From NCBI GenBank assembly GCA_006969625.1, contig CP030885.1, forward strand, positions 1,869,430 through 1,933,429: DNA of 64,000 bases, written 5' to 3'. Position numbers and translations under genes: made by a program. This DNA comes from Rhodospirillaceae bacterium (lineage in GTDB: Bacteria; Pseudomonadota; Alphaproteobacteria; Kiloniellales; DSM-21159). Numbering within the stretch: position 1 is the stretch's first letter; each line of letters opens with the position of its first letter. The notes under the pieces were generated by a model that made no database searches, was not told where the DNA came from, and worked only from the letters and a program-made list of their open reading frames with translations. Positions 6,562-48,917 of the stretch are shown here, piece after piece.

Positions 6562-6590
6562 GATGTCCTCCTGGCAAGAGTTCCACGCGC

Positions 6591-7421: not shown

Positions 7422-7427
7422 GGGCGC

Positions 7428-10107: not shown

Positions 10108-11682
10108 GTGCCGACTCGGCGCCAAGTTCGGCGGCGGCGCGCGCCATGGAGAGCCGCTTTGGACCGCTACGACATCGTCGTCATCGGGGGCGGGGTCAAC
10201 GGCTGCGGCATCGCGCGCGATGCCGTGGGCCGCGGCTACTCCGTGCTGGTGTGCGAGCAGAGCGATCTCGGGGGCGGCACTTCGGCGGCCTCGACCAAGC
10301 TGGTGCATGGCGGCCTGCGCTATCTGGAGCACTACGAGTTCCGTCTGGTGCGCGAGGCGCTGATCGAGCGCGAGGTCTTGCTGCGCGCCGCGCCTCATAT
10401 CATCTGGCCGCTGCGCTTCATCCTGCCGCATCACAAGGGCCTGCGTCCGGCCTGGCTGCTACGGCTCGGCCTGTTCCTCTACGATCACCTCGGCGGCCGC
10501 AAGCTGCTGCCACCGACGGCGGTGCGCGACCTGCGCCGGGAACCCGAGGGCGCGCCGCTCGACCCGCAGTACCGCAAAGGCTTCGAGTACTCCGACTGCT
10601 GGGTGGAAGATTCCCGGCTCGTGGTGCTGAACGCGATGGACGCGGCCGAGCGCGGCGCCGAAGTGCGGGTGCGCACCCGCTGCGCCGAGGCCAGGCGCGA
10701 AGGCGGCCACTGGCAGGTGGTCCTGGAGGATGCCGAGGGCAACCGCGAGACGGTGCACGCGGACGCACTGGTGAACGCCGCCGGACCCTGGGTCGATCAG
10801 GTGCTGAGCGGCAGCATGGGCAGCAACGCCCGCCGCAACGTCCGGCTGGTGCAAGGCAGCCACATCGTGGTGCGGCGCCTGTTCGACCACGACAAGGCCT
10901 ACATCTTCCAGAATGCGGACGGCCGCATCGTCTTCGCCATTCCCTACGAGCGCGACTTCACCCTGATCGGCACCACCGACCGCGACTGGCAGGGCGATCC
11001 GAAGGACGTTCGGATCAGCGAGGAGGAGATCGCCTACCTCTGCGAGGCGGTCGACGCCTACCTGGCGACGCCGGTGACCCCGGAGGACGTGGTCTGGACC
11101 TACTCTGGCGTGCGCCCGCTCTACGACGACGGCGCGTCCAAGGCGCAGGAGGCGACGCGCGACTACGTGCTGAAGCTGGAGCGCGGGCCGGACGGCAGCG
11201 GCGCACCGCTGCTCAACGTCTTCGGCGGCAAGATCACCACCTTCCGCAAGCTGGCCGAGGCGGCGATCGGGCGGCTGCAGGAGGCGCTGCCGGCCAAGGG
11301 CAGGCCCTGGACGGCCAAGGCCGCTCTGCCGGGGGGCGACTTCCCGGTTAGCGATTTCGAGAAGCTGGTCGGCGAGATCCTCGCAGACTACCCCTTCCTT
11401 GCACGCGAGACGGCGCGCCGCCTGGTGCGCGCCTATGGTACGCGTGCGCGCCGGCTGCTCGGCACGGCCCGCAGCGCCGAGGACCTCGGCCGCGTGTTCG
11501 GCGCCGACCTGACCGAGGCCGAGGTCGACTATCTGATGCAGGCCGAATGGGCGCGCGCCGCCGCGGACGTGGTCTGGCGGCGCAGCAAACTCGGCTTGCG
11601 CATGACGCAACAAGAAATCGCCGCCCTCGACGAATGGATGGCGGACCGTGCCCGCAAGCTGAAGCTGCAGGCCGCGGAATAA
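10108..11682 (+). CDS. glpD: FAD-dependent glycerol-3-phosphate dehydrogenase
   Basis: 524 aa with a GTG start. YDIVVIGGGVNGCGIARDAVGRGYSVLVCE is the FAD dinucleotide fold. GGKITTFRKLAE and the C-terminal GlpD-type alpha-helical domain are present. Confidence 0.9.
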   Translation: MPTRRQVRRRRAPWRAALDRYDIVVIGGGVNGCGIARDAVGRGYSVLVCEQSDLGGGTSAASTKLVHGGLRYLEHYEFRLVREALIEREVLLRAAPHIIWPLRFILPHHKGLRPAWLLRLGLFLYDHLGGRKLLPPTAVRDLRREPEGAPLDPQYRKGFEYSDCWVEDSRLVVLNAMDAAERGAEVRVRTRCAEARREGGHWQVVLEDAEGNRETVHADALVNAAGPWVDQVLSGSMGSNARRNVRLVQGSHIVVRRLFDHDKAYIFQNADGRIVFAIPYERDFTLIGTTDRDWQGDPKDVRISEEEIAYLCEAVDAYLATPVTPEDVVWTYSGVRPLYDDGASKAQEATRDYVLKLERGPDGSGAPLLNVFGGKITTFRKLAEAAIGRLQEALPAKGRPWTAKAALPGGDFPVSDFEKLVGEILADYPFLARETARRLVRAYGTRARRLLGTARSAEDLGRVFGADLTEAEVDYLMQAEWARAAADVVWRRSKLGLRMTQQEIAALDEWMADRARKLKLQAAE

Positions 11683-11706
11683 CGACGTTAGGGAGGTGCG
11701 GGGTCG

Positions 11707-12801
11707 ATGGCCCTGGAGTTGCTGGACGTCGGCAAGACGGTGCGCGACGAGGCGCACCTTGCCGGAATATCCCTGACCCTCGAGAAGGGCACGCTCAACG
11801 TGCTTCTGGGGCCGACGCTGTCGGGCAAGACCAGCCTGATGCGCGTGATGGCCGGCCTCGACGTGCCGACCAGCGGGCGCGTGCGCATGGGCGGACGCGA
11901 CGTCACCGGCGTGCCGGTGCGCAAGCGCAACGTCGCCATGGTCTACCAACAGTTCATCAATTATCCGACCCTGTCGGTCTACGAGAACATCGCCTCGCCG
12001 CTGAGGGTCGCCGACGTCGACCGCAAGGAGGTCGACCGGCAGGTGCGCGCGGCGGCCGAGTTGCTGCGCCTGACGCCGATGCTCGAGCGCACGCCGCTTG
12101 AGCTGTCCGGCGGACAGCAGCAACGCACCGCCCTGGCGCGCGCCCTGGTCAAGCGGGCCGAGTTGGTGCTGCTCGACGAGCCGCTGGCCAATCTCGACTA
12201 CAAGCTGCGCGAGGACCTGCGCAGCGAGCTGCCGCGCATCTTCAAGGAATCCGGCGCGGTTTTCGTCTATGCGACGACCGAGCCGAGCGAGGCCTTGCTG
12301 CTCGGCGGCAACACCGCGACGCTTCACCAGGGCCGGGTAACCCAGTTCGGACCGACCCCGGATGTGTACCGCCGGCCGCGGGACCTGATCACGGCGACCA
12401 CCTTTTCCGACCCGCCGATGAACACCGTGGCGGTCGCCAAGCGCGACGGGCGCCTGCGCTCGGCCGACAGCGCGCTCGATCTTCCGGTGCCGCGCGGTAC
12501 CGAGCTGGCCGACGGCGACTACACGCTCGGCTTCCGCCCGCACAATGTCTACGTCGACCGGCCGCACGCCGGCGCGGTCTCGGTGACGGCCACCGTGGCG
12601 GTCACCGAGATCACCGGATCGGAGAGCTTCGTGCACGTCGACTTCGGCGCCGAACGCTGGGTGGCCATCTGGCACGGCGTGCATACCCTGCAGGTCGACA
12701 GCCGGATCGAGGTCTGGCTCGACCCGGCCCAAGTCTACCTGTTCGACCGCGACCAGCGGCTGGTGATGGCGCCGTCGCGCGCCGCTGCGGCGGCGGCCTG
12801 A
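11707..12801 (+). CDS. ABC transporter ATP-binding protein (first of two; GlpS-like, glycerol-type importer)
   Basis: 364 aa. Walker A GPTLSGKTS, LSGGQQQR, LLDEP, and a MalK-like C-terminal regulatory domain. Gene order matches the rhizobial glpD-STPQUV glycerol uptake cluster. Confidence 0.85.
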   Translation: MALELLDVGKTVRDEAHLAGISLTLEKGTLNVLLGPTLSGKTSLMRVMAGLDVPTSGRVRMGGRDVTGVPVRKRNVAMVYQQFINYPTLSVYENIASPLRVADVDRKEVDRQVRAAAELLRLTPMLERTPLELSGGQQQRTALARALVKRAELVLLDEPLANLDYKLREDLRSELPRIFKESGAVFVYATTEPSEALLLGGNTATLHQGRVTQFGPTPDVYRRPRDLITATTFSDPPMNTVAVAKRDGRLRSADSALDLPVPRGTELADGDYTLGFRPHNVYVDRPHAGAVSVTATVAVTEITGSESFVHVDFGAERWVAIWHGVHTLQVDSRIEVWLDPAQVYLFDRDQRLVMAPSRAAAAAA

Positions 12802-36852: not shown

Positions 36853-37860
36853 ATGCGCCGGTTTCTGCTCGCCCTCTGCCTGCCGATCGCGCTGGCCCTC
36901 GCCCCCGCCGCCGCGCCGGCCGAGCCTGTCGCGCCGCGCGACCGGGCGGTGCCGGAGGGCACCGAAGGGCTGAGCGGCGAGGAGATCTACTGGCGCGCGC
37001 TGGAGGCGGCGGAGGCGGGCGACAGCCTGCGCTACGAGCGGCTGCTGGCGGCGGCGGCGGACAAGGGCGACCGCTTCGCCGGCCAGGACCTCGTGCGCCT
37101 GCACTACCTGCGCGGCGCGCCGGATTGGCGGGAGACGGCGCTCCGCTACCTGCGCCCCATCCCCCGCGACCCGCTCGTCGACGAGCAACACCTCTACTGG
37201 CTGGCGGCGGCGGGCGAGCGCCGGGAGCCGCCGCTGCCGCAGGCCCAGACCGACCTCTGGTACCGGATCGCCGCCTGGTCCTCGACGGATCTGCTGTGGC
37301 CGAACCGCGCCGACCTGCAGACCAAGCTGGCGCGCGCCGAAGAGCGCTGGCTGCTCGGCGGCGAGATCTCCTGGCGCTACCGCGAGCTGGTCGGCGAGGC
37401 GCTGCGCCTGCGGCGCGCCGACGGCGCCCGCCTGTACGCGGCCAGCCGCACGGTCTGCGACGCCCCCCTCGAGGACGCCGAATTGCTGTGCATGCAGTAT
37501 CTCGAAGCGGCCGCGGACAAGGATCATGCAAAAGCGCAGTTCGCCTACGCATCCAGGGTCCTGGATGCCCCACCGTACACACACCACGATACGGTCATCG
37601 TCTGGGCGGTCGGCTTGCTTTGTCGCGCCGGACAGAGCGGGATTGCCGAAGCCACTATTCGATTGGCACAGGCAGTCTTGGAACTTGAGGTGGCGCCGTC
37701 GCGGTTTCGTCTACAAGCCTACCTGCAACTAGAAGCGCTAGGTGAACCGCCTGCAGACCTCGGCGGGTTGCAGGATTTGCTGCGGATGTCTCTTACGAAC
37801 GAGCAGCTCAAATGGCTCGCGGACATGGCGGCGTGGGGCCGGTCTGCACCGGGCTGTTGA
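36853..37860 (+). CDS. array protein A1: secreted helical (Sel1/TPR-like?) protein, class I
   Basis: 335 aa. Sec signal MRRFLLALCLPIALALAPAAAPA. Collinear with A2/A4 (TDLWYRIAAW, GGEISWRYRELVGEA, CMQYLEAAADKDHAKAQF, LLCRAGQSG). Four Cys in the mature part, including a C-terminal Cys. Confidence 0.75.
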   Translation: MRRFLLALCLPIALALAPAAAPAEPVAPRDRAVPEGTEGLSGEEIYWRALEAAEAGDSLRYERLLAAAADKGDRFAGQDLVRLHYLRGAPDWRETALRYLRPIPRDPLVDEQHLYWLAAAGERREPPLPQAQTDLWYRIAAWSSTDLLWPNRADLQTKLARAEERWLLGGEISWRYRELVGEALRLRRADGARLYAASRTVCDAPLEDAELLCMQYLEAAADKDHAKAQFAYASRVLDAPPYTHHDTVIVWAVGLLCRAGQSGIAEATIRLAQAVLELEVAPSRFRLQAYLQLEALGEPPADLGGLQDLLRMSLTNEQLKWLADMAAWGRSAPGC

Positions 37861-37890
37861 GTGCGGGCGCGACGTTCCGGCCCATCCAGA

Positions 37891-39282
37891 TCAAGCCACC
37901 GGATCTCCCCCGCAGTGCCGGGCGATCTCGCGCTTCAGTTCCTCCATCGCCGCCAGGGCTTCGGCGATCGCGGCGTTGAGCTCTTCGATCTGCTCCGTCA
38001 GCTCGCGCCGCCGTTGCTGCCATGCTTCGAGTGCCGCAGAGGTCTCGGCGATGTCCGGGTCCAGATAGGTCGACGAGGGTCCCGGTTGCGGGCGAAACGG
38101 CTCTTCCTTCTCTGACTGTTTACGGCGTTGCAGGGCCTCGACGCCACGCCCGACGACGACGGCCAGCCGGCCGTAGGGGTGCCTCGACAGCAGCCAGAGC
38201 CCGAGGTCGATCGCCAATTCCAGCGCACCCAAGGCCGCTTGCGTTCGTCGGTAAGCTTGCCAAAGCCTCTCGAGCTCCTGTTCGAGCCGCGTTACCTCTT
38301 TCTGAGCTTTGTCGAGCAGTTCGGGCAGGCCTTTCTTCTTTTCCAGCGCCGTCTCGTATTCGCCCTCGCGCACGCGCAGTTCGTGCCGCAGGGCGCGGCA
38401 TTTCGCAGCACGGTCCGGCCCGTCCGGATGCTGGTCGCCGGGCGGCTTCGGCTTGACGCCGCCGGAGCCCGGCGCGTCGGGCTGCTCCGGCGTGCCCGGT
38501 TCCTCGGGCGGCGCCGGCGGGTTGGGCGTTGGCTCGGGTGTCGGATGTGGCTCCGGCGTTGGCTCCGGCTCCGGCGGCGTGTCGGCGTCCCGTTCGGGCG
38601 CCTGGAGTGGCAGGCCGGCGGCTTGGGCGAGGCTGCGCAGGGTCGGACCGTCGGGAGTGACGAGTCCGTCGACCATCAGGCCGTGCGCCTGCTGGAAGGC
38701 GCGGATGGCGGCGTCGAGGGCCTCGGTGACCTGCCCGCTCGGCTCGTGCGGCGGCTGCCAGTGGTACCAGCCGGTCCCCGCCAGGGCCTTCTGCAGGCCG
38801 ACCACGTCGCGCCGGGCGTTGCCGGGGGTGTTGACGGGAGCGTTGCCGGGGCGCCGGGAGCCGGCCGCCTGCGGCGCGGCGCCGCCGGTCGAAACGCTGC
38901 GGCCGACGGGCCCGCGCGGGTGCAGGTCCTGGGGCTTCGGCTCGGGGGCGAACCAGTCGAGCCCGCGGCGGCCCTCGGCGTACTCGGGCTTGGGCGCGGT
39001 CTCGCGCTGCCGGCCGGTAGCGTCCCGCTGGACCTTGCCGCTGCCGTAAACCTGGGCGTACTGGCGCCGGACGTACTGAAAATAATCCTCGTCCTGGTCC
39101 TGCCAGTACAGCGGGTCGGCCACCAGGCCGGTCAGCGCCCGCTCGATCGGCGTCGGTTCCTCGGGCCGCCGCCGGCGCCGTGCGGCGCGCGGGGCATAGG
39201 GATCGTAGGGATCGTCGGGATCGCCGCGCGAACGGCCACTGGAATCGGGGGCGAGGGGAGATCGAAAGCTGCCGCGGGCCAT
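37891..39282 (-). CDS. array protein B1: conserved N-region + PG_binding_1-like segment + PEPT linker + class I variable helical C-module
   Basis: Start favoured at MARGSFRSP (ATG 39282, GGAG 8 nt upstream); the track ORF begins at GTG 39333. RRDVVGLQKALAGTGWYHWQPPHEPSGQVTEALDAAIRAFQQAHGLMVDGLVTPDGPTLRSL resembles a peptidoglycan-binding repeat. The C-terminal 170 aa have heptad-like, charged coiled-coil character. Confidence 0.75.
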   Translation of the reverse strand: MARGSFRSPLAPDSSGRSRGDPDDPYDPYAPRAARRRRRPEEPTPIERALTGLVADPLYWQDQDEDYFQYVRRQYAQVYGSGKVQRDATGRQRETAPKPEYAEGRRGLDWFAPEPKPQDLHPRGPVGRSVSTGGAAPQAAGSRRPGNAPVNTPGNARRDVVGLQKALAGTGWYHWQPPHEPSGQVTEALDAAIRAFQQAHGLMVDGLVTPDGPTLRSLAQAAGLPLQAPERDADTPPEPEPTPEPHPTPEPTPNPPAPPEEPGTPEQPDAPGSGGVKPKPPGDQHPDGPDRAAKCRALRHELRVREGEYETALEKKKGLPELLDKAQKEVTRLEQELERLWQAYRRTQAALGALELAIDLGLWLLSRHPYGRLAVVVGRGVEALQRRKQSEKEEPFRPQPGPSSTYLDPDIAETSAALEAWQQRRRELTEQIEELNAAIAEALAAMEELKREIARHCGGDPVA

Positions 39283-39428
39283 GGTCCTGCTCCGGGTCGG
39301 TGGCACAGAGGGCATGGACCATAGCAAGAACACTCATCCAAGAGAAGAACAAAAAGGCATCAACTTGCGCGGCGGGAATCCGGCCGTCGGCGGCAGTTGG
39401 CCGGTGGTGTCGCGCGTGCGCTTGTCGT

Positions 39429-39464
39429 CTGGCAGAGCATGGCGCTGCGACCTATAGTGGCGGC
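39429..39464 (+). promoter_or_regulatory. conserved A-gene upstream architecture CTGGCA-N18-TATAGT-N6-ATG
   Basis: Read directly from the sequence. Same layout as upstream of A1, A3 and A5. A duplicate lies at 44295..44330. Confidence 0.45.
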
Positions 39465-40508
39465 ATGCTTCGCACGCTCGCCCGGAGCCTGGCACCGTTG
39501 ATCGCGGCCGTGTGGCTGGCCGCGGACCTTGGCGTGCCCGCGCAGGCCGAGCAAACCACGCCGCAGCCCGAGCCGCCGCGCGACCAAGTGGTGCCGGAGG
39601 GGATCGAGGGGCTGACGGCCGAGGAGATTGCTGAGTTAGCGATCGAGGCGGCACAGGCCGGGGACACCGAGCGCTATCTCGAACTCCTGGCGGCAGCGGC
39701 CTACGCTGGCGATGCACACTCCGCACGTCAGATGGCGCGCTTGGCATATGGGCGCCAGTGGCCGGGCTGGCCAGAGACGGCGCTTCGCTACGTCCGACCT
39801 ATTGCCGATGGTGCTGTTCTGAAGGCTGAATCCTTCTATTGGTTGGGATTCGCCGGGGAGAACGCCATCCCGTCTCTGCCCGAGGAACAAACCGATCTCT
39901 GGTACCGGATCGCCGCTTGGCACATGGCGAACAGCTACGGGGACAGCCGTGCCGACCTGCAAGTGCTTCTCGACCATTATGGAGAGGACTGGCTGAGCGG
40001 CGGCGAGGTTTCGTGGCGGTTTCGCGAGCTGGTGGGCGAAGCCTACGCGTTTCAGGCCAAGAGCGGGTCCTGGTTCTACGAGCAAGCTCTCAGCTATTGC
40101 AGCATGGCCCTCGAGCATGCAGGGATCCTCTGCCTGGACTATTTGGAGGTTGCGGCGCGAAAGGACCACCCGCGCGCGCAGTTCGACTTCGCTTGGCAGG
40201 TGTTGAACGCCTCGCCGGAGACAGCGTCGGAATCACGTCGGGCATGGGCGATGTCGCTCTTGTGTTTGAGCGGACAAAGCGGGGTCCGTGAAGCCACCAT
40301 CCTGCTGGCCCGAAAGATCGTCGAGAACGATCTCGGAGAAGGCCACTTCCGACCGCAAGCCTACTATCAGATTGGATTGATCGAGGAGCGAAATGAAGAG
40401 CTGGAGGAGCTTTTTCTGGAAATCGATAAGCGATTAAGTCACAATGAGCGATGGCAGTTGGAATACTCATATAAAAACGCCTTTCCCATTTCATGCTCAC
40501 ATCGCTGA
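39465..40508 (+). CDS. array protein A2: secreted helical protein, class I (identical to A4)
   Basis: 347 aa. Signal MLRTLARSLAPLIAAVWLAADLGVPAQA. Collinear with A1. Noticeably more AT-rich at its 3' end. Confidence 0.75.
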   Translation: MLRTLARSLAPLIAAVWLAADLGVPAQAEQTTPQPEPPRDQVVPEGIEGLTAEEIAELAIEAAQAGDTERYLELLAAAAYAGDAHSARQMARLAYGRQWPGWPETALRYVRPIADGAVLKAESFYWLGFAGENAIPSLPEEQTDLWYRIAAWHMANSYGDSRADLQVLLDHYGEDWLSGGEVSWRFRELVGEAYAFQAKSGSWFYEQALSYCSMALEHAGILCLDYLEVAARKDHPRAQFDFAWQVLNASPETASESRRAWAMSLLCLSGQSGVREATILLARKIVENDLGEGHFRPQAYYQIGLIEERNEELEELFLEIDKRLSHNERWQLEYSYKNAFPISCSHR

Positions 40509-40529
40509 CGCTGGACCGATGGCCTGCGC

Positions 40530-41375
40530 TCAACTCTGTGGCGGTGCAGGTGGCCGGCCGCCACAGTTCCGAGCAATCTCTTCCTGTAGTCGGTCTATGG
40601 CTGCCCGAGCTTCAGCGATCTCGGCATTCAGGCTTTCGATCTCGTCTGTGAGATCACGCCGTTCCTTCTGAAGCCTCTGCAGCCTCTCGGAGCTCTGCAC
40701 GATTTCGGGGTCAATCGGGCTGGGGGCACTCGGATTCCTGCGCCCCGCGTTCGCATGCTCCTTTAGCGCGCGCCGAAGCTCACGCATGCCGCGATGGACC
40801 GAGGTTGCTAGGAACCCGAGGGGGTGACGCCTGATCAACCACATGCCGAGTTCTATGGTTAACTCGATTGTAGCCTTCGTAGCCGCTTGCTGACGCTCCT
40901 TCTCCCAAAGCTGCGAAATCTTCTCTTCTAACGCTGTGATTCGTCCTTGAAGATCTTGTAGCGCTTCGGGCAGGCCTTTCTTCTTCTCCAGCGCCGTCTC
41001 GTATTCGCCCTCGCGCACGCGGAGTTCGTGCCGCAGGGCGCGGCATTTCGCAGCTCGGTCCGGCCCGTCCGGATGCTGGTCGCCGGGCGGCTTCGGCTTG
41101 ACGCCGCCGGAGTCAGGTTCTTCCGGTTCCTCGGGCTCCTCTGGCGTTGGCGTCGGCGTTGGCTCCGGCTCCGGCGGCGTGTCGGCGTCCCGGTCGGGCG
41201 CCTGGAGGGGCAGGCCGGCGGCTTGGGCGAGGCTGCGCAGGGTCGGGCCGTCGGGAGTGACGAGTCCGTCGACCGTCAGGCCGTGCGCCTGCTGGAAGGC
41301 GCGGATGGCGGCGTCGAGGGCCTCGGTGACCTGCCCGCTCGGCTCGTGCGGCGGCTGCCAGTGGTACCAGCCGGT
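40530..41375 (-). pseudogene. orphan B module B2': 5'-truncated B copy (partial PG-binding segment + linker + class I variant C-module)
   Basis: Homology to B1 starts abruptly at GTGWYHWQPPHEPSGQV. The frame is open up to a TAA at 41475-41477, but there is no ATG/GTG/TTG until GTG 41018 (VREGEYE...). The N-terminal 180 codons and the RBS of full-length B are absent. Confidence 0.7.
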
Positions 41376-41435
41376 GCCGGCCCGCAGGCTCTTCGAGCCT
41401 GCATCCGTGAAAGGTTTGGGACCGCGCGAACGCGG
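41376..41435. repeat. 60-nt double-hairpin element at the 5' breakpoint of orphan B2' (duplicate at 46242..46301)
   Basis: GCAGGCTC-TTC-GAGCCTGC (41384-41402) and GGGACCGCG-CGAA-CGCGGTCCC (41418-41439). B-like sequence (CCTTCTGCAG..) resumes briefly on the far side, so this looks like an insertion into B coding sequence. Confidence 0.6.
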
Positions 41436-41518
41436 TCCCCCGCCTTCTGCAGCCCGAGCAGGACGCGGCGTGCTTTAGTGGCGGCGCTGGCTAGGGGCTG
41501 GCGCGCTGCGGGCGGGCC

Positions 41519-41554
41519 CTGGCGGGGCGGCGGCGAAGCGCCTAGTCTGGTGGC
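41519..41554 (+). promoter_or_regulatory. conserved A-gene upstream architecture CTGGCG-N18-TAGTCT-N6-ATG
   Basis: Read directly from the sequence. A duplicate lies at 46385..46420 upstream of A5. Confidence 0.4.
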
Positions 41555-42646
41555 ATGCGCTGCCAAGTCGCCCTGTTGCTGTGCGTGTGTCTCGCGCTGG
41601 TGCTCGCGCCGGTGCCGGCGCAGGCGGCGCCGATGCAGGAGCGGGGCGCAGGGCAGGACGCCGAGGCGCCGCCCGCGTGGGATTGGCCGCCCGGCCCGAG
41701 CGTGATCTTCGATCCGACGACCGGCGAGACCCTGCGCATGCCGGACGAGCTGCGCGGCCTGCCACCGGAAGAGGTGTATGCGTTTTCCGAGGAGCTGCGC
41801 GCCGAAGGCGACGAGCGGCGAGCGGATACGCTCTTCGCCTTCGCCGGCTACATGGGATACCCTTTCGCGGCCGAGTGGCTGGCGCGTTTGGCTTTCGGTG
41901 AAGACTGGCCGGACGACCCGTCCCGCGTCTTCTACTTCGCCCATCTGGCGACCGAGCGTACCAACATGGCGAGGCGTGCCCACTTCTGGCTGGCGCTTGC
42001 CGGCGGCCATCCGGACATCGGCCTGGCGCCGGAGCAGCTCGAGATCTGGACCTTGGCGGCGGCGGCGGCCATGACGCGGAGTGACCAAGAGCTGTCTCAC
42101 CTCGAGCGCCGCCTCGAGCTGTTGCGCAGCGCACTTGGAGATTACTCCGAGTTGTTGGCGCCCACGGAGAGCGCCGCGCGAGACCTGCGGGCCAGTTTCG
42201 ACGCTGGACCGCACGCGCTTCTGGAGACGTACGCGCCCATCTGCGAAGGGCCTGACCTGCCCGGCCGTGACGTATTCTGTGCCGACATTTTTCTCTTCTT
42301 CCATGGCGACGATCCAAGGGCGATGCGACTGGGGAGCTTTGCGCTTTCGAACTTGGATCTTCGGTTCGAGCAATGGTTCCGCATCAGCAAAGCGCAGCGC
42401 CTGCTCTGTAAGCTGGCCTTGGAGGGTGACTCCGAGGCTGCGTATCGCCTCGGGATCCTGTTCCCCCATCATCAGTCCGCTAGCGGTCCGCAATCTCTCG
42501 ACGTCGCCGTGCTCCTTGCCCGTGCCGCACCTAGACTGCCAGCCGCAGCACCCTTGCTCGAAAACCTGATGGCCGACATGAGCGCGCGCGATAGGAGGCA
42601 AGTCGCGGTCTTGGCCGATGTCGATCGACCCCCGATCCGGTGTTAG
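41555..42646 (+). CDS. array protein A3: secreted helical protein, class II
   Basis: 363 aa. Signal MRCQVALLLCVCLALVLAPVPAQA. The first 100 or so aa are identical to A5 apart from one substitution, then the sequence is homologous but diverged. Motifs YAPICEGPDLPGRDVFC, RLLCKLALEGD, and a C-terminal Cys. Confidence 0.75.
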   Translation: MRCQVALLLCVCLALVLAPVPAQAAPMQERGAGQDAEAPPAWDWPPGPSVIFDPTTGETLRMPDELRGLPPEEVYAFSEELRAEGDERRADTLFAFAGYMGYPFAAEWLARLAFGEDWPDDPSRVFYFAHLATERTNMARRAHFWLALAGGHPDIGLAPEQLEIWTLAAAAAMTRSDQELSHLERRLELLRSALGDYSELLAPTESAARDLRASFDAGPHALLETYAPICEGPDLPGRDVFCADIFLFFHGDDPRAMRLGSFALSNLDLRFEQWFRISKAQRLLCKLALEGDSEAAYRLGILFPHHQSASGPQSLDVAVLLARAAPRLPAAAPLLENLMADMSARDRRQVAVLADVDRPPIRC

Positions 42647-42710
42647 CTGTCTCGAAATCCGGCCCACGCGCCGTGCACGCGACCGCAGGGTTAGCTAAGC
42701 GCACGGCCGG

Positions 42711-44148
42711 CTACGCGCAGTGCCGGCGGATCAGCTCTTCCAGCGCCTCGATGCGCGCCGTCACCTCTGCCTTCCACGCTCGCTCGCGCTCCACCTCGTC
42801 CATGAGCCGAGCCTCCTCGGCCTTTGCCTCCAGATAGGCGTCCCAGAGGGCCCGCAGGTCGCCCGACGCCGCGAGGAGCTCCGGGTCCGGATCCGGCAAG
42901 TCGGGGCTTCCGCGGGGCCGGTCGGGCGCCTCCCGATCATCGCGCCGATCCCGCCTGTCGCGGTCGCCTCCGCCGGGTCGGCTGCGACCCCGGCCGTAGC
43001 GCCAGGACAAACCTTCCAGAATCCATTCTCCTACTTCCTCTGCCAAGTCTTTAAGCATAGAGTCTCGCCGCTTTTCTTGTACCTCTTTCAGTGTTTCTCG
43101 ATATTCCACGACGATATCTGATATTTTCCTCCCTTGTTCGATCAGCGCTTTGTCGAGGCGCTGGATTTCCTCCTCGGCCACCTCGAGCACGATGCGCAGG
43201 CGGGCGAGATCGCGGCGCGACTGCGCGCACTTGGCCGCGTCGGGGTCGTCCGGCGTGTCGGGGTCGTCCGGCGTGTCGGGCTCCTCCGGCTCCTCGGGCG
43301 GCGTTGGCGTCGGCTCCGGCGTCGGCTCCGGCGTCGGCTCCGGGGCCGGCGTCGGCTCCGGCTCCGGCTCCGGCGGCGTGTCGGCGTCCCGGTCGGGCGC
43401 CTGGAGGGGCAGGCCGGCGGCTTGGGCGAGGCTGCGCAGGGTCGGGCCGTCGGGAGTGACGAGTCCGTCGACCGTCAGGCCGTGCGCCTGCTGGAAGGCG
43501 CGGATGGCGGCGTCGAGGGCCGCGGTGACCTGCCCGCTCGGCTCGTGCGGCGGCTGCCAGTGGTACCAGCCGGTCCCCGCCAGGGCCTTCTGCAGGCCGA
43601 CCACGTCGCGCCGGGCGTTGCCGGGGGTGTTGACGGGAGCGTTGCCGGGGCGCCGGGAGCCGGCCGCCTGCGGCGCGGCGCCGCCGGTCGAAACGCTGCG
43701 GCCGACGGGCCCGCGCGGGTGCAGGTCCTGCGGCTTCGGCTTGGGCGCGAACCAGTCGAGCCCGCGGCGGCCCTCGGCGTACTCGGGCTTGGGCGCGGTC
43801 TCGCGCTGCCGGCCGGTGGCGTCGCGCTGGACCTTGCCGCTGCCGTAGACCTGGGCGTACTGGCGCCGGACGTGCTGAAAATAATCCTCGTCCAGGAGCG
43901 AGTTGCTCTGCAACTCGCTCCAGAACGTCGATTCTCGACCGAGGTCACTCGGTCCGGTCCTGCCAGTACAGCGGGTCGGCCACCAGGCCGCTCAGCGCCT
44001 GCTCGATCGGCGCCGGCTCCTCGGGCCGCCGCCGGCGGCGCCTTGCGGCGCGCGGGGCATAGGGATCGTAAGGGTCGCCGGTCGGATCGCCGGTCGGATC
44101 GCCACTGGAATCGGGGGTGAGGGGAGAACGGAAGCTGCCGCGGGCCAT
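42711..44148 (-). pseudogene. array protein B3 (class II C-module), reading frame split by a 62-nt insertion
   Basis: The N-terminal fragment 43945..44148 (MARGSFRSPLTPDSS...LYWQDRTE*) and the C-terminal ORF 42711..43913 lie in different frames. Alignment with B1/B5 shows an extra segment between ..AATAATCCTCGTCC and GGTCCTGCCAGTAC.. . The C-fragment could still be expressed from its internal ATG (MQSNSLLDEDYFQ). Confidence 0.7.
43894..43955. repeat. 62-nt double-hairpin insertion (MITE/REP-like) interrupting B3
   Basis: GGAGCGAGTTGC-TCT-GCAACTCGCTCC (43895-43921) and GACCGAG-GTCA-CTCGGTC (43937-43954). Absent from the equivalent position of B1 (about 39085) and B5 (about 48720). The net +61 nt causes a frameshift. 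Confidence 0.75.
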
Positions 44149-44330
44149 GGTCCTGCTCCGGGTCGGTGGCACAGAGGGAAGCGACCATAGCAAGAACACT
44201 CATCCAAGAGAAGAACAAAAAGGCATCAACTTGCGCGGCGGGAATCCGGCCGTCGGCGGCAGTTGGCCGGTGGTGTCGCGCGTGCGCTTGTCGTCTGGCA
44301 GAGCATGGCGCTGCGACCTATAGTGGCGGC

Positions 44331-45374
44331 ATGCTTCGCACGCTCGCCCGGAGCCTGGCACCGTTGATCGCGGCCGTGTGGCTGGCCGCGGACCTTGGCG
44401 TGCCCGCGCAGGCCGAGCAAACCACGCCGCAGCCCGAGCCGCCGCGCGACCAAGTGGTGCCGGAGGGGATCGAGGGGCTGACGGCCGAGGAGATTGCTGA
44501 GTTAGCGATCGAGGCGGCACAGGCCGGGGACACCGAGCGCTATCTCGAACTCCTGGCGGCAGCGGCCTACGCTGGCGATGCACACTCCGCACGTCAGATG
44601 GCGCGCTTGGCATATGGGCGCCAGTGGCCGGGCTGGCCAGAGACGGCGCTTCGCTACGTCCGACCTATTGCCGATGGTGCTGTTCTGAAGGCTGAATCCT
44701 TCTATTGGTTGGGATTCGCCGGGGAGAACGCCATCCCGTCTCTGCCCGAGGAACAAACCGATCTCTGGTACCGGATCGCCGCTTGGCACATGGCGAACAG
44801 CTACGGGGACAGCCGTGCCGACCTGCAAGTGCTTCTCGACCATTATGGAGAGGACTGGCTGAGCGGCGGCGAGGTTTCGTGGCGGTTTCGCGAGCTGGTG
44901 GGCGAAGCCTACGCGTTTCAGGCCAAGAGCGGGTCCTGGTTCTACGAGCAAGCTCTCAGCTATTGCAGCATGGCCCTCGAGCATGCAGGGATCCTCTGCC
45001 TGGACTATTTGGAGGTTGCGGCGCGAAAGGACCACCCGCGCGCGCAGTTCGACTTCGCTTGGCAGGTGTTGAACGCCTCGCCGGAGACAGCGTCGGAATC
45101 ACGTCGGGCATGGGCGATGTCGCTCTTGTGTTTGAGCGGACAAAGCGGGGTCCGTGAAGCCACCATCCTGCTGGCCCGAAAGATCGTCGAGAACGATCTC
45201 GGAGAAGGCCACTTCCGACCGCAAGCCTACTATCAGATTGGATTGATCGAGGAGCGAAATGAAGAGCTGGAGGAGCTTTTTCTGGAAATCGATAAGCGAT
45301 TAAGTCACAATGAGCGATGGCAGTTGGAATACTCATATAAAAACGCCTTTCCCATTTCATGCTCACATCGCTGA
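44331..45374 (+). CDS. array protein A4 (identical to A2), class I
   Basis: The translation is identical to 39465..40508. Confidence 0.75.
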   Translation: MLRTLARSLAPLIAAVWLAADLGVPAQAEQTTPQPEPPRDQVVPEGIEGLTAEEIAELAIEAAQAGDTERYLELLAAAAYAGDAHSARQMARLAYGRQWPGWPETALRYVRPIADGAVLKAESFYWLGFAGENAIPSLPEEQTDLWYRIAAWHMANSYGDSRADLQVLLDHYGEDWLSGGEVSWRFRELVGEAYAFQAKSGSWFYEQALSYCSMALEHAGILCLDYLEVAARKDHPRAQFDFAWQVLNASPETASESRRAWAMSLLCLSGQSGVREATILLARKIVENDLGEGHFRPQAYYQIGLIEERNEELEELFLEIDKRLSHNERWQLEYSYKNAFPISCSHR

Positions 45375-45395
45375 CGCTGGACCGATGGCCTGCGC

Positions 45396-46241
45396 TCAAC
45401 TCTGTGGCGGTGCAGGTGGCCGGCCGCCACAGTTCCGAGCAATCTCTTCCTGTAGTCGGTCTATGGCTGCCCGAGCTTCAGCGATCTCGGCATTCAGGCT
45501 TTCGATCTCGTCTGTGAGATCACGCCGTTCCTTCTGAAGCCTCTGCAGCCTCTCGGAGCTCTGCACGATTTCGGGGTCAATCGGGCTGGGGGCACTCGGA
45601 TTCCTGCGCCCCGCGTTCGCATGCTCCTTTAGCGCGCGCCGAAGCTCACGCATGCCGCGATGGACCGAGGTTGCTAGGAACCCGAGGGGGTGACGCCTGA
45701 TCAACCACATGCCGAGTTCTATGGTTAACTCGATTGTAGCCTTCGTAGCCGCTTGCTGACGCTCCTTCTCCCAAAGCTGCGAAATCTTCTCTTCTAACGC
45801 TGTGATTCGTCCTTGAAGATCTTGTAGCGCTTCGGGCAGGCCTTTCTTCTTCTCCAGCGCCGTCTCGTATTCGCCCTCGCGCACGCGGAGTTCGTGCCGC
45901 AGGGCGCGGCATTTCGCAGCTCGGTCCGGCCCGTCCGGATGCTGGTCGCCGGGCGGCTTCGGCTTGACGCCGCCGGAGTCAGGTTCTTCCGGTTCCTCGG
46001 GCTCCTCTGGCGTTGGCGTCGGCGTTGGCTCCGGCTCCGGCGGCGTGTCGGCGTCCCGGTCGGGCGCCTGGAGGGGCAGGCCGGCGGCTTGGGCGAGGCT
46101 GCGCAGGGTCGGGCCGTCGGGCGTGACGAGTCCGTCGACCGTCAGGCCGTGCGCCTGCTGGAAGGCGCGGATGGCGGCGTCGAGGGCCTCGGTGACCTGC
46201 CCGCTCGGCTCGTGCGGCGGCTGCCAGTGGTACCAGCCGGT
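45396..46241 (-). pseudogene. orphan B module B4' (identical to B2')
   Basis: The ORF 45396..45884 translation is identical to 40530..41018. The upstream in-frame B-like sequence lacks a start codon, as in B2'. Confidence 0.7.
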
Positions 46242-46420
46242 GCCGGCCCGCAGGCTCTTCGAGCCTGCATCCGTGAAAGGTTTGGGACCGCGCGAACGCG
46301 GTCCCCCGCCTTCTGCAGCCCGAGCAGGACGCGGCGTGCTTTAGTGGCGGCGCTGGCTAGGGGCTGGCGCGCTGCGGGCGGGCCCTGGCGGGGCGGCGGC
46401 GAAGCGCCTAGTCTGGTGGC

Positions 46421-47512
46421 ATGCGCTGCCAAGTCGCCCTGTTGCTGTGCGTGTGTCTCGCGCTGGTGCTCGCGCCGGTGCCGGCGCAGGCGGCGCCGAT
46501 GCAGGAGCGGGGCGCAGGGCAGGACGCCGAGGAGCCGCCCGCGTGGGATTGGCCGCCCGGCCCGAGCGTGATCTTCGATCCGACGACCGGCGAGACCCTG
46601 CGCATGCCGGACGAGCTGCGCGGCCTGCCACCGGAAGAGGTGTATGCGTTTTCCGAGGAGCTGCGCGCCGAAGGCGACGAGCGGCGAGCGGATACGCTCT
46701 TCGCCTTCGCCGGCTACATGGGGTATCCGCCCGCTGCGTCAAACCTGGCGCGTTTGGCTTTCGGTGAAGATTGGCCGGACGACCCGTCGCGCGTCTTCTA
46801 CCTCGCCCATCTGGCGACCGAGCGCAGCACGCTACCCAGCTCTGCCTATTTTTGGCTCGCGATTGCCGGCGCCCATCCCAAGATCGCTCTCGGACCGGAG
46901 CAAATCGAGATCTGGACGCTCGTCACCGCTGCCTCCATGGCGTATCCAGATCAGGAGCCGGCGTTTCTCGATGAAGCGCTCGGTCGTCTGAGCCGGTGGC
47001 TCGGCAACTACACCGAGCTGCTGCGCCCGGTTGAGATGACAACTCGGCGCCTGCAGGCCAAGTTCGACGAAGGTTCAGCGGCGCTCGTGGACGCCTATGC
47101 GCCCGTCTGCGAGGGGCCCGACCTGCCCGGCCGGGACGTGTTCTGCGCCAACGTTTTCCTATTCGATCACGGTGACGATCCGAAAGCGATGCGCTTCGGC
47201 AGTTTCGCGCTCTCGAACCTCGATTTGCGCTTCGTTGCCTGGTACCGGATCAATGCAGCGCAAAGGCTACTTTGCAACCTGGCGAATGGCGGCGATATCG
47301 AGGCTCTGCGGCGGTTGGCACGGCTGTACCAATATCATCAGCCGGCCAGTCGGCCGCATCCGAGAGATGTTGCCGTCCTGTTTACCCGCGCCGCACCGAC
47401 CATGCCGAGCGTTGCCTCAGCGCTCGAGAAGCTGCTGGCAGACATGAGCGCGGAAGACCGGACCCAGGTGGAAGCTCTGGCAGCGACCGACGGATTGCCG
47501 CCGAGGTGCTAA
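46421..47512 (+). CDS. array protein A5: secreted helical protein, class II
   Basis: 363 aa. Shares the signal peptide and first 100 or so residues with A3 (one substitution, A/E), then diverges while staying collinear (YAPVCEGPDLPGRDVFC, RLLCNLANGGD, C-terminal Cys). Confidence 0.75.
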   Translation: MRCQVALLLCVCLALVLAPVPAQAAPMQERGAGQDAEEPPAWDWPPGPSVIFDPTTGETLRMPDELRGLPPEEVYAFSEELRAEGDERRADTLFAFAGYMGYPPAASNLARLAFGEDWPDDPSRVFYLAHLATERSTLPSSAYFWLAIAGAHPKIALGPEQIEIWTLVTAASMAYPDQEPAFLDEALGRLSRWLGNYTELLRPVEMTTRRLQAKFDEGSAALVDAYAPVCEGPDLPGRDVFCANVFLFDHGDDPKAMRFGSFALSNLDLRFVAWYRINAAQRLLCNLANGGDIEALRRLARLYQYHQPASRPHPRDVAVLFTRAAPTMPSVASALEKLLADMSAEDRTQVEALAATDGLPPRC

Positions 47513-47564
47513 CCGAGCCTTCGCCGCCGATTGACCTGATCGACGGAGTAAGCGGTGTGGTGGA

Positions 47565-48917
47565 TTAGGTACACTGCTCGCGGATCAGTTTCTCCAAAGC
47601 GTCGATACGCCTTACGATGTTGCTCTTTCTCCGCCTTTCGCTCTCCAGCTCGCGAGCGAGCTTCGCGTGCTCCGCTTTCGCTTCCCGGTAATCGTCCCAT
47701 AAGCCCCGCAGCTTGATCGAAGCTTCGAGGAGTTCCGGGTCCGGCTCTGGCAAATCGGGCACATCCTCGGTGTCGCCCCGGCGCTTGCCGTCGTTGCGTT
47801 CGTCTGGAGACCTGGTGTCTCTGGGGCGGCGGCGCCCGATTTTCAATCTTTGGAGAAAAAGCCCGAGCGCATACTCTGCAGCATCTTCGAGGATAGATCC
47901 TTTAGCCTTTTCGACTGCGTCATTGTAAGCAATTTGGAATTCTTCTGCTTTGTCCCATACGGTTTCCGCCTGCTCTGCTTGCATGGATTCGAGGCGCTGG
48001 ATTTCCTCCTCGGCCACCTCGAGCACGATGCGCAGGCGGGCGAGATCGCGGCGCGACTGCGCGCACTTGGCCGCGTCGGGGTCGTCCGGCACGTCGGGGT
48101 CGTCCGGCGTGTCGGGCTCCTCCCGCTCCTCGGGCGGCGTTGGCGTCGGCTCCGCGTCTGGCTTTGGCTCCGGGTTCGGCGTTGGCGTCGGCGTTGGCTC
48201 CGGCTCCGGCGGCGTGTCGGCGTCCCGGTCGGGCGCCTGGAGTGGCAGGCCGGCGGCTTGGGCGAGGCTGCGCAGGGTCGGGCCGTCGGGCGTGACGAGT
48301 CCGTCGACCGTCAGGCCGTGCGCCTGCTGGAAGGCGCGGATGGCGGCGTCGAGGGCTTCGGTGACCTGCCCGCTCGGCTCGTGCGGCGGCTGCCAGTGGT
48401 ACCAGCCGGTCCCCGCCAGGGCCTTCTGCAGGCCGACCACGTCGCGCCGGGCGTTGCCGGGGGTGTTGACGGGAGCGTTGCCGGGGCGCCGGGAGCCGGC
48501 CGCCTGCGGCGCGGCGCCGCCGGTCGAAACGCTGCGGCCGACGGGCCCGCGCGGGTGCAGGTCCTGGGGCTTCGGCTCGGGCGCGAACCAGTCGAGCCCG
48601 CGGCGGCCCTCGGCGTACTCGGGCTTGGGCGCGGTCTCGCGCTGCCGGCCGGTAGCGTCCCGCTGGACCTTGCCGCTGCCGTAAACCTGGGCGTACTGGC
48701 GCCGGACGTACTGAAAATAATCCTCGTCCTGGTCCTGCCAGTACAGCGGGTCGGCCACCAGGCCGCTCAGCGCCCGCTCGATCGGCGCCGGTTCCTCGGG
48801 CCGCCGCCGGCGCCGTGCGGCGCGCGGGGCATAGGGATCGTAGGGATCGTCGGGATCGCCGCGCGAACGGCCACTGGAATCGGGGGCGAGGGGAGATCGA
48901 AAGCTGCCGCGGGCCAT
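47565..48917 (-). CDS. array protein B5: full-length, class II variable C-module
   Basis: MARGSFRSP start at 48917 with the same GGAG context. The N-terminal 260 or so aa are nearly identical to B1. The C-module shares AAKCAQSRRDLARLRIVLEVAEEEIQRL with B3, then diverges. Ends ..LIREQCT. Confidence 0.75.
   Translation of the reverse strand: MARGSFRSPLAPDSSGRSRGDPDDPYDPYAPRAARRRRRPEEPAPIERALSGLVADPLYWQDQDEDYFQYVRRQYAQVYGSGKVQRDATGRQRETAPKPEYAEGRRGLDWFAPEPKPQDLHPRGPVGRSVSTGGAAPQAAGSRRPGNAPVNTPGNARRDVVGLQKALAGTGWYHWQPPHEPSGQVTEALDAAIRAFQQAHGLTVDGLVTPDGPTLRSLAQAAGLPLQAPDRDADTPPEPEPTPTPTPNPEPKPDAEPTPTPPEEREEPDTPDDPDVPDDPDAAKCAQSRRDLARLRIVLEVAEEEIQRLESMQAEQAETVWDKAEEFQIAYNDAVEKAKGSILEDAAEYALGLFLQRLKIGRRRPRDTRSPDERNDGKRRGDTEDVPDLPEPDPELLEASIKLRGLWDDYREAKAEHAKLARELESERRRKSNIVRRIDALEKLIREQCT

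Follow-up and report, generated by a model that had tools for sequence, protein, structure and literature searches.

An array of two gene families, A and B, in the stretch of Rhodospirillaceae DNA analysed here (the window, 64,000 nucleotides in full) raises the question of what its truncated B copies, B2' and B4', represent: silent cassettes, remnants of decay, by-products of an expanding pair of envelope proteins, or short genes in their own right. Full-length and truncated B units alternate along the array, and each truncated unit stands beside an A gene of its own. The best supported of the readings we weighed is the first, and on balance we consider it probable that B2' and B4' belong to a hitherto undescribed polymorphic effector family as silent cassettes that have lost their 5' ends. 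The features on which the argument turns are listed below by their positions in the window.

36853..37860, plus strand: A1, class 1, an ORF with a signal-peptide-like N-terminus, predicted to encode a secreted Sel1-like-repeat-fold protein; convergent partner of B1
37891..39282, minus strand: B1 (P0001), intact and full-length, 463 aa, with N-domain, PG_binding_1, Pro-rich linker and class-1 coiled-coil C-terminal module (CT)
39283..39464: B1/A2 divergent control region, with the T-rich conserved B upstream element and the A2 promoter-like site
~39319-39359, minus strand: T-rich conserved B upstream element of B1
CTGGCA 39429 ... TATAGT 39458: A2 promoter-like site, abutting the A2 ATG
39465..40508, plus strand: A2 (P0006), intact class-1 A, partner of the orphan B2'
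40530-41474, minus strand: B2', a start-less B copy
40530..41044, minus strand: class-1 variable CT module of B2', intact and in frame, both flanking Cys kept; holds the 162-aa GTG-41018 ORF
41045..41385, minus strand: Pro-rich linker and partial PG_binding_1 of B2' (Pfam profile positions 19-51 only)
41143-41382, minus strand: B2' arm of ~240 nt, 97-98% identical to B1, B3 and B5
41386..41441, minus strand: 56-nt two-hairpin insertion, which breaks the B2' frame; the "breakpoint" of the first-pass annotation
41442..~41520, minus strand: diverged, out-of-frame B remnant, B codons ~130-167 (...ARRVLLGLQKA)
41519..41554, plus strand: A3 promoter-like element, CTGGCG-N18-TAGTCT, whose end lies 6 nt upstream of the ATG
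41555..42646, plus strand: A3, class-2 A
42711..44148, minus strand: B3, class-2 B, disrupted by a 62-nt insertion at 43894-43955
44331..45374, plus strand: A4, intact, identical copy of A2
45396..46340, minus strand: B4', copy of B2' with its 56-nt insertion (here 46252-46307)
46421..47512, plus strand: A5, class-2 A, partner of B5
47565..48917, minus strand: B5 (P0002), intact full-length class-2 B, 450 aa
39310..41830 and 44176-46700: duplicated 2.5-kb block, ~99.9% identical, running from the B upstream region through A2, B2' and the junction into A3 (its first ~270 nt)

The signals from which a B protein would be read are missing from the orphans. On the minus strand, the B2' frame is open between a TAA at 41475-41477 and its stop at 40530-40532, and the first ATG, GTG or TTG in it is indeed, as had been claimed from the letters of the sequence, GTG 41018, from which only a 162-aa ORF would follow. 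The T-rich upstream region conserved at B1, B3, B5 and the B gene of L006, a locus in another organism, is missing upstream of B2', our promoter scan found no sigma-70-like site on the B2' strand, and the orphans are devoid of the B promoter, RBS and N-terminal domain. The 162-aa ORF, or a longer B3 read-through product across antisense A3, could in principle be expressed as a stand-alone CT protein: the ORF is open and its CT intact, no terminator-like site is predicted on the minus strand between B3 and B2', and in one truncated L006 copy a GTG where the PG domain begins opens a 262-aa ORF. Such expression nevertheless strikes us as very improbable, since the scan detected nothing promoter-like on that strand and the region upstream of the B2' homology, with a G+C content of 0.57 at third codon positions, looks non-coding. 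Querying the protein collection with the B2' CT gave zero matches, a weak result given that B1 and B2' themselves were not returned either, which hints that the orphan ORF is not annotated. The 162-aa ORF was rejected as a real gene because GTG 41018 is an internal Val codon of LRVREGEYE, present in full-length B1 too, with no Shine-Dalgarno-like sequence before it.

B4' repeats the sequence of B2' at a 4866-nt offset, bearing out the duplication reported earlier, and residues 161 to 463 of full-length B1 match both orphans with E ~1e-96 (tblastn), so the similarity is not due to chance. The first-pass annotation had this homology begin simply at GTGWYHW, with a breakpoint inside the PG-binding segment. 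What lies at that point is instead the 56-nt insertion (41386-41441), which consists of two perfect hairpins (MFE -33.4, z -4.8) and lies between the 98%-identical segment and a remnant, "GPPAARQPLASAATKARRVLLGLQKA" (41442-~41520), that is diverged and out of frame and matches approximately B residues 130-167. Excision of the insertion in silico puts B2' back in frame (GLQKARAGTGWY). Identity in the remnant is ~68% and its DNA-level support is modest (z about 2.6-3.9); its ARRxVxGLQKA motif and the restored frame make it credible. The remnant runs up to the A3 promoter, so that the truncation abuts that promoter, and, judged from the sequence, the true truncation of B2' lies at about codon 125-130. 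The insertion and the remnant therefore imply that ~125-130 codons are truly missing rather than the ~180 first estimated, while the reported loss of the RBS, the B promoter region and the N-terminal domain stands. B3 carries a 62-nt insertion (43894-43955), which differs in sequence from that of B2' and B4' and shares its two-hairpin architecture; it introduces a frameshift and a stop, and the resulting 67-aa N-terminal fragment forms a separate entry (P0010) in the protein collection. An Rfam search of the window found no RNA family. Lacking promoter, RBS, start codon and N-domain, and with their frame broken by the insertion, the orphans would be untranslatable as B, and the same frame break would leave B2' usable as a donor only downstream of the insertion.

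B is built from a conserved N-domain, PG_binding_1, a Pro-rich linker and a variable coiled-coil CT of ~170 aa flanked by two invariant Cys; a C295-C457 bond is predicted in B. B1 matches PG_binding_1 (PF01471) with E=1.5e-9 and 38.3 bits, against a gathering cut-off of 23, and B2' matches it with 30.3 bits over profile positions 19-51 of 57. Beyond this domain, Pfam gave only coiled-coil noise on B1, B3, B5 and B2', and PADLOC, NCBIfam and PHROGs returned for the array proteins only coiled-coil noise and PG-domain matches. Neither the B N-domain nor the A family has any Pfam, NCBIfam or PHROG annotation; neither a signal peptide nor a recognised secretion or trafficking domain was found in B; and the B profile matched no PDB sequence. 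No enzymatic signature is seen in the CT, which in the databases matches only generic coiled coils. In B1 it was modelled as long helices at 289-367 and 409-457, in a structure model whose pLDDT of 52 is too poor for a fold search. Two CT classes occur in the window and a third in P0003 and P0004.

The A proteins are 340-360 aa long (A2, ~347 aa) and share four invariant Cys and a signal peptide; no Sel1 or other Pfam or NCBIfam match was found in them. The AF2 model of A2 (pLDDT 86) is an all-helical, Sel1-like solenoid, and Foldseek gives Sel1-like-repeat proteins as its best PDB matches (E 1e-4, probability 1.0), with TM-scores of only 0.2-0.3; LpnE and HcpC are among the matches, as are, with weaker scores, the immunity proteins PA5086-5088. 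From its signal peptide, Cys and model, A appears to be a secreted, disulfide-containing protein of Sel1-like-repeat fold.

The family is sparse, and its C-termini are varied. In 28 representative clusters, the body of N-domain and PG_binding_1 is joined to unrelated C-termini, among them Cys-flanked coiled coils, a weakly MltC/transglycosylase-like domain and globular domains of unknown type, and the G+C content of the variable modules (0.58-0.66) departs from that of the constant body (0.75-0.77). Among 5.8 billion proteins, we found four relatives for B1 and four for A2; close relatives occur in only about three organisms, which gives the family low comparative power. Scanning GTDB-representative genomes with the B profile recovered only unrelated PG-binding proteins, and a first metagenome scan with the same profile found nothing. 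Exact matching of the proteins A3, P0001 and P0003 retrieved no contigs. A degenerate DNA pattern for LYW...DATGR recovered no viral contigs and six metagenome loci, all belonging to a distant MYPYDE subgroup with housekeeping neighbours.

These features bear on whether the array is a conflict system at all. B might instead be a peptidoglycan-anchored coiled-coil envelope protein and A its periplasmic Sel1-like-repeat partner, serving, for example, in envelope tethering or scaffolding, with the array an expansion of paralogue pairs and the truncated copies its by-products. Such a role would suit a CT devoid of toxin-like domains whose predicted form is a long helical hairpin, as well as the generic use of Sel1-like-repeat proteins as protein-binding adaptors; it would also suit the surroundings, since the flanking genes (TctA, an AMP-binding enzyme, PanE, an MBL-fold protein, ICMT and DLH) include no secretion system or mobile element adjoining the array. 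We nonetheless think it unlikely. The extremely sparse distribution, the low G+C content of the variable modules, the attachment of the same body to unrelated C-termini (one of them weakly transglycosylase-like), the frequent inactivation of B with retention of A, and the conserved Cys of both partners in spite of a B that lacks a signal peptide are typical of conflict systems, not of housekeeping envelope proteins.

The relationship between the two genes is most apparent in how they vary. Across the pairs, A and the CT of the convergent B co-vary (Mantel r=0.80, p about 6e-4), which makes A most likely a specific binding or neutralising (immunity-like) partner. Pairing each B with its divergent A instead gives r=0.15, and this pairing was rejected. 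The orphans conform to the rule: A2 and A4, identical to each other, belong to the class of A1, just as the B2' CT belongs to that of B1, and the earlier statement that each orphan keeps an intact, class-matched A gene is upheld. As to orientation, A points towards B instead of following it in the same direction, an unusual layout for a toxin-immunity pair that counts against the silent-cassette reading.

The constant parts of the array follow a different course from the variable ones. All five copies in the window, orphans included, share a 195-nt PG/linker segment at 97.4-99.5% identity, and identity of this arm is 98.5% within L006 as against 70-79% between organisms; dS is 0-0.075 in the arms versus ~1.0-1.4 in the variable cassettes, with dN/dS of 0.23-0.42. 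On the A side, the first ~92 codons of A3 and A5 are 99% identical and the remainder 65%, and a CTGGCG-N18-TAGTCT-type motif precedes all eight A genes compared, the A2 and A4 sites being found by the promoter scan as well. The 2.5-kb A2-B2' block, ~99.9% identical between its two units and with abrupt edges, is a recent duplication within the array. Taken together, arm identity, cassette dS and the duplicated block indicate that the array is recombinationally active in the very PG-binding/linker segment that the first-pass annotation had proposed as the recombination substrate. Concerted evolution extending to the orphans supports that proposal; its further step, the joining of an orphan CT to an expressed 5' region, has no counterpart among the alleles we saw, none of which is such a chimera. 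The array thereby offers a clean natural example of concerted constant segments beside ancient, trans-specific variable alleles.

Disruption of B extends beyond the window. The only two other organisms in which the family was found also have B copies, truncated or with internal deletions, beside intact A genes, and across the known loci the majority of B copies are disrupted, while the A genes are kept (10 of 10 read intact). In L006, all three B copies are affected (one by truncation and frameshift, one by truncation, and one by internal deletion and frameshift), and two of its B' copies are cut near residue 122, where they immediately adjoin A promoters; the middle B copy of L008 has no PG domain, and a B copy of L001 carries a 13-nt duplication. 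This pattern could reflect plain decay, with B2' and B4' as pseudogene remnants that serve no reservoir role, selection keeping only the A genes, either for orphan immunity or just because such paralogues are useful, and the arms being homogenised passively as repeats recombine. We regard this as a possible, though clearly less probable, account. The breakage of B, by the insertion in B3, by truncation and insertion in B2' and B4', and by the lesions in L006, L008 and L001, is what decay would produce, as are the uniformly intact A genes and the drift of the sequence upstream of the B2' insertion. Yet the B2' CT is intact over 314 codons, with both Cys and the RHPLGFLATSV motif retained, and is no further than that of B1 from the CT of the last B in L008 (normalised similarity 0.50 for B2', 0.40 for B1), so there is no accelerated decay of the orphan CT; moreover, truncated units set against an A promoter recur in a second organism. 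The main difference between decay and the silent-cassette reading is whether the remnants are ever used. Broken B copies alongside wholly intact A genes fit either equally well.

If the orphans are silent cassettes, the layout suggests how they could operate. Convergence of the two genes places the variable body of A beside the variable CT of B as one cassette of ~1.5 kb, bracketed by two constant arms: on one side the 5' end of A, including its promoter, and on the other the B PG/linker segment. Homologous recombination or gene conversion in these arms would keep them near-identical within the genome and could shift the whole A-body and B-CT specificity unit between positions. The A genes beside the orphans, having promoters of their own, would stay expressed, so that such units could confer standing protection as well as a reservoir of alternative specificities. 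We infer that the B CT and A have toxin and immunity activity, that they act in the periplasm with an export route for B, and that the orphans actually serve as donors; if this is true, the array also implies a still unrecognised way of exporting a peptidoglycan-binding protein that lacks a signal peptide. A bolder version, in which the array represents a new periplasm-acting effector/immunity class, with a double-recombined convergent cassette, an undescribed N-terminal export domain and B switching by hairpin insertion, is speculative and seems to us rather improbable; under it, the ~56-62-nt two-hairpin mini-insertions may switch off single B copies, perhaps reversibly.

Several known systems offer partial parallels. 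The silent copies of pilE/pilS and vlsE/vls exchange sequence with their expression locus by gene conversion. As in those systems, promoterless partial copies in the array share conserved segments with expressed genes, but each array cassette carries a second, expressed partner gene, several full-length B copies are potentially expressed rather than one expression site, the cassettes are few, and there is no sign of high-frequency switching. The analogy drawn in the first-pass annotation therefore survives in the loose sense of silent cassettes with gene conversion, the match being no closer than that. On the immunity side, PA5086-PA5088 are periplasmic and occur in several tandem copies beside their effector, the T6SS phospholipase PldB. 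They are Sel1-like-repeat immunity proteins and are among the weaker fold matches of A2 (PDB 6lch, 5jkp, 5jjo); in contrast to a close relationship, Foldseek gives E 0.03-0.08 with TM about 0.2, they have no sequence similarity to A, and their effector is unrelated.

Orphan cassette behaviour has been described for CDI (PMC3150448), Rhs (PMC3967940) and polymorphic toxins (PMC3482391). The array resembles the orphan cdiA-CT/cdiI modules of CDI (PMC3150448) in having fragments without translation initiation signals, a variable length of constant sequence before the CT, a cognate partner gene for each fragment, a tandem position on the 3' side of a full-length gene, and an identity to that gene that drops abruptly at the CT boundary. 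The orphan CT/partner anatomy first read into the locus is supported by the truncation, the missing initiation signals, the constant stretch with its intact CT and the co-varying partner, and departs from it in the convergent A. Pfam on B1, B3, B5 and B2' and inspection of the flanks revealed no CdiB/CdiA, FHA repeats or VENN/DUF638 domain; the partner converges on B with its own promoter, whereas the CDI partner is co-directional and downstream; it is a 340-360-aa protein, predicted to be secreted and of Sel1-like-repeat fold; full-length and truncated units alternate; and toxicity and delivery in the array are putative. With the main and orphan Rhs loci of Salmonella (PMC3967940), the array has in common a silent orphan tip and partner gene that share a stretch of homology with the expressed gene, as well as a G+C discontinuity between constant body and variable tip. 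In Rhs, recombination in the shared stretch moves the orphan CT onto the expressed rhs as the activating step (PMC3967940), whereas the array displays only concerted arm evolution and a recent cassette duplication, with no recombinant. YD repeats and an Rhs core ending in PxxxxDPxGL are also absent, no B has an RHS/YD Pfam match, and no T6SS is in view. The array is a member of neither CDI nor Rhs.

The broader polymorphic toxin systems (Zhang et al. 2012, PMC3482391) share with the array a constant 5' body with diverse C-terminal modules and several cassettes per active gene. Their cassettes are toxin-immunity pairs swapped in one event, and PGB1-type peptidoglycan-binding domains are reported among their accessory domains (PMC3482391). 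Differences remain, in that the B N-domain matches no described trafficking domain, the CT falls in no listed toxin family, and the convergent array would need a two-arm exchange rather than a single 3'-tip crossover. This geometry, in which both specificity determinants would sit in one swappable cassette between two homogenised arms, differs from that of CDI, Rhs and Maf loci, and, if the silent-cassette reading is true, the array would represent an undescribed polymorphic effector family.

Five convergent A/B gene pairs lie within 36.8-49.0 kb of the window, each consisting of a secreted partner gene (A) facing a PG-binding-domain gene (B); the orphans B2' and B4' are 5'-truncated B copies without a start codon.

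Genes of the A/B array (window positions)
36853-37860, plus strand: A1, paired with B1
37891-39282, minus strand: B1, intact, 463 aa
39465-40508, plus strand: A2, paired with B2'
40530-41474, minus strand: B2', orphan
41555-42646, plus strand: A3, paired with B3
42711-44148, minus strand: B3, full-length class-2 gene, frameshifted
44331-45374, plus strand: A4, paired with B4'
45396-46340, minus strand: B4', orphan, copy of B2'
46421-47512, plus strand: A5, paired with B5
47565-48917, minus strand: B5, intact, 450 aa

Ordinary metabolic genes flank the array, with TctC/TctA, an AMP-binding enzyme and PanE on the left and an MBL-fold protein, ICMT, DLH and OpuAC on the right. The A and B stop codons are separated by 21-64 nt (37861-37890, 40509-40529, 42647-42710, 47513-47564). 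No terminator-like hairpin was predicted in these four convergent gaps of the window, and transcriptional collision or antisense overlap between the partners is possible.

From N- to C-terminus, the intact proteins B1 and B5 comprise a conserved stretch of ~150 aa, a PG_binding_1 domain (Pfam PF01471, E about 1.5e-9), a Pro-rich linker and a variable C-terminal module (CT) of ~170 aa. Flanked by two invariant cysteines, the CT gave coiled-coil matches of a generic kind only, and long helices are predicted in it at 289-367 and 409-457 (local pLDDT 82-89) by a whole-protein model that is poor. Class-1 CTs occur in B1, B2' and B4' and class-2 CTs in B3 and B5, while a third class is carried by P0003, a 450-aa protein from another locus of the same 4.62-Mb genome. 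Relatives are few, with four each for B1 and A2 among 5.8 billion proteins. The B N-terminal domain alone recovered 28 representative clusters, in which it and a PG-binding-like domain are joined to unrelated C-termini: a Cys-flanked coiled coil (P0030; that of P0023 is similar), a weakly MltC/transglycosylase-like region (P0028) and globular domains of no known identity (P0018, P0029 and P0033). Diverse C-termini on a constant body are a hallmark of polymorphic toxins (PMC3482391); a structural, non-conflict role for A and B is, in our assessment, unlikely.

Alignment of the A proteins revealed signal-peptide-like N-termini and four invariant cysteines, and searches against Pfam, NCBIfam, PHROG and PADLOC returned no match. 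The AlphaFold model of A2 is an all-helical solenoid (pLDDT 86, pTM 0.81); the structures that it matches best in the PDB are those of Sel1-like-repeat proteins, LpnE and HcpC among them, followed more weakly by the T6SS immunity proteins PA5086-5088, all with low TM-scores. A further A protein of 347 aa (P0009), encoded elsewhere in the same genome, has about 83% of its first ~54 residues in common with A2 (hand count) and about 40% identity overall. All 10 A genes read in the window and related loci are intact. A promoter-like CTGGC-N18-CTAnnnT is conserved before every A, including all those of the related loci L006 and L008 (window sites 39429-39458, 41519-41548 and 44295-44324). Because it ends 6-7 nt 5' of the ATG in 8/8 genes compared, leaderless or near-leaderless mRNAs are suggested; no Shine-Dalgarno sequence lies between motif and ATG in these eight. 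In a comparison of nine A/CT pairs, drawn from the window and from two of the related loci, A similarity follows the CT similarity of the convergent B (Mantel r=0.80, permutation p about 6e-4), which upholds the proposal of the first-pass annotation that each orphan retains a class-matched A. The alternative that the functional pair is B with its divergent A was rejected (r=0.15 vs 0.80).

The same annotation correctly described B2' as lacking a start before GTG 41018, its minus-strand frame staying open between a TAA at 41475-41477 and the stop at 40530, and as lacking the B promoter: the T-rich element conserved upstream of B1, B3, B5 and the related L006 gene is absent. B4' is, as proposed, a duplicate of identical sequence, offset by 4866 nt. 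Independent expression of the 162-aa ORF that the open frame offers from this GTG is highly improbable; the codon is an internal Val of LRVREGEYE, also present in B1, no Shine-Dalgarno sequence precedes it, and a scan of the B2' strand found no promoter-like site. The breakpoint at GTGWYHW had been read as a deletion end-point, and here the evidence pointed elsewhere: alignments with B1 and related-locus junctions place a 56-nt insertion at this position.

Palindromic insertions in B genes (window positions)
41386-41441, minus strand: 56-nt insertion in B2'
46252-46307, minus strand: 56-nt insertion in B4', same sequence
43894-43955, minus strand: 62-nt insertion in B3

Folding of the B2' insertion gives a pair of perfect hairpins (MFE -33.4 kcal/mol, z -4.8), and perfect hairpins this good are rare in the window. 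On its 5' side, in another frame, stands '...ATKARRVLLGLQKA', a diverged form of '...GNARRDVVGLQKA' in B1, and deleting the 56 nt fuses this remnant in frame with 'RAGTGWYHW'. Since the remnant extends to the A3 promoter, the genuine truncation amounts to about codons 1-125/130. The DNA-level significance of the remnant is modest (z 2.6-3.9); the motif and the restored frame are persuasive, and on this sequence evidence the case for a true B remnant appears convincing. The B3 insertion, which occurs once in the window, likewise forms two strong hairpins (perfect stems of 7 bp and 12 bp; MFE -36.3, z -5.4). It takes the place of a single base where the LYWQD codons meet those of DEDYFQ, bringing a frameshift and a stop, and the 67-aa N-fragment is a separate protein (P0010) in the protein collection. 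Both insertions have the architecture hairpin, roughly 15-nt spacer, hairpin, with different sequences; GGACCG starts the B3 insertion and lies three bases into that of B2'. Two independent palindromic mini-insertions, both in B, could represent a mini mobile element, scars of template switching during replication, or a switch.

Broken B genes recur in related arrays, namely L006/L007 on a 1.2-Mb ENA contig, and L008/L009 and L001 from one JGI metagenome, of which L001 shares synteny with the right flank of the window. The L006 array (5636-12010, and L007) adjoins moaA and holds three intact A genes with every B disrupted. Two B copies begin at about residue 122 and directly abut the promoter of the following A, and one of these two is frameshifted as well; the third has its N-terminus joined to the linker in the wrong frame and lacks the PG domain. 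Genes for IS481- and IS630-family transposases lie within 10 kb of this array. The middle B of L008 is missing residues ~95-285. In the L001 homologue beside DLH, the frame is broken at the PLYW codons (~9947-9972) by a tandem duplication of 13 nt, possibly an assembly artefact, so that the annotated P0004 begins at an internal GTG. The only intact B are B1, B5, P0003 and, as far as visible, the last of L008. In the distant P0028 group (L015 430-2206, L010 345-1989), a gene with N-domain, PG-binding domain and weakly transglycosylase-like CT is followed by a small, apparently two-TM gene. Further 3' in L015, a fragment that combines the PG-binding domain's C-terminal portion with the 3' half of a second small-gene copy is another relic with its edge inside the PG-binding domain; several frameshifts at these two loci may be sequencing errors.

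This high frequency of broken B genes is accounted for by plain decay of B copies with A kept by selection, the main rival, which we consider possible but rather doubtful. It differs from our preferred reading of B2'/B4' as silent cassettes chiefly in whether remnants get reused. Normalised similarity to the L008 counterpart is 0.50 for the orphan CT and 0.40 for B1; the orphan CT is decaying no faster than intact CTs.

Identity in the 195-nt PG/linker arm is 97.4-99.5% across 5/5 window copies, orphans included. It reaches 98.5% for the two copies of L006 and 96% for L008 compared with L001, against only 70-79% between organisms, a pattern that bears out the earlier suggestion of a shared recombination segment. 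The value of dS is 0-0.075 in constant parts and 1.0-1.4 (dN/dS 0.23-0.42) in variable parts (A3/A5 codons 93-363, B3/B5 CT, B1/B2' CT, A1/A2). Class-1 CTs of three organisms are closer to each other than class 1 is to class 2 within one genome, which marks the cassettes as old alleles and the arms as homogenised per genome. The homogenised tract of B2' ends at the 56-nt insertion, past which identity is about 68%; this drop would fit a conversion tract halted by heterology, unlike the equal drift of a dead gene. Within the 4866-nt repeat unit, a 2.5-kb block (39310-41830 vs 44176-46700) differs at 2 positions (~99.9% identity), whereas the remainder is only 58-78% identical. The block runs from the region upstream of B through A2, B2' and the junction into the first 270 nt of A3. 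It indicates a recent conversion or duplication, and its edges are abrupt, one falling in the B upstream region and the other near codon 92 of A3/A5. The A genes are themselves mosaic, A3 and A5 being 99% identical over 92 codons and 65% thereafter. The convergent orientation places the variable body of A next to the variable CT of B, so that the two make up a single uninterrupted ~1.5-kb cassette with a constant arm on either side; exchange through the pair of arms would swap the two specificity determinants at once.

Our preferred reading, to which we give somewhat better than even odds, takes B2' and B4' for silent orphan cassettes belonging to a polymorphic system of effector/immunity-like type that is so far undescribed. 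The B CT would be a putative toxin and A its putative neutraliser; the PG-binding domain, conserved Cys pairs and A signal peptide hint that both may act in the periplasm. B, which has no signal peptide, would be exported by some route, and the orphans might donate to an expressed B.

The description given by the first-pass annotation is for the most part confirmed, its breakpoint being corrected, and its orphan CT/immunity interpretation has partial support: the class-matched A and the homogenised arm agree with it, a cdiA/rhs-type layout does not. In their manner of working B2' and B4' would resemble the orphans of the cdiA-CT/cdiI and rhs loci (PMC3150448, PMC3967940) while belonging to neither family: Pfam searches found no CdiA, CdiB, VENN or YD features in B, these being missing from the A/B system, and the geometry differs in that the A/B pairs are convergent. 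G+C is 0.58-0.60 at 40001-41000, 45001-46000 and 47001-48000 vs ~0.70 for the window; these tracts are the variable 3' parts of A and the B CTs, and the constant B body stands at 0.75-0.77, a body/tip discontinuity of the kind known from Rhs elements. The A/B proteins form a family without annotation, and the system would be of a known kind in convergent form.
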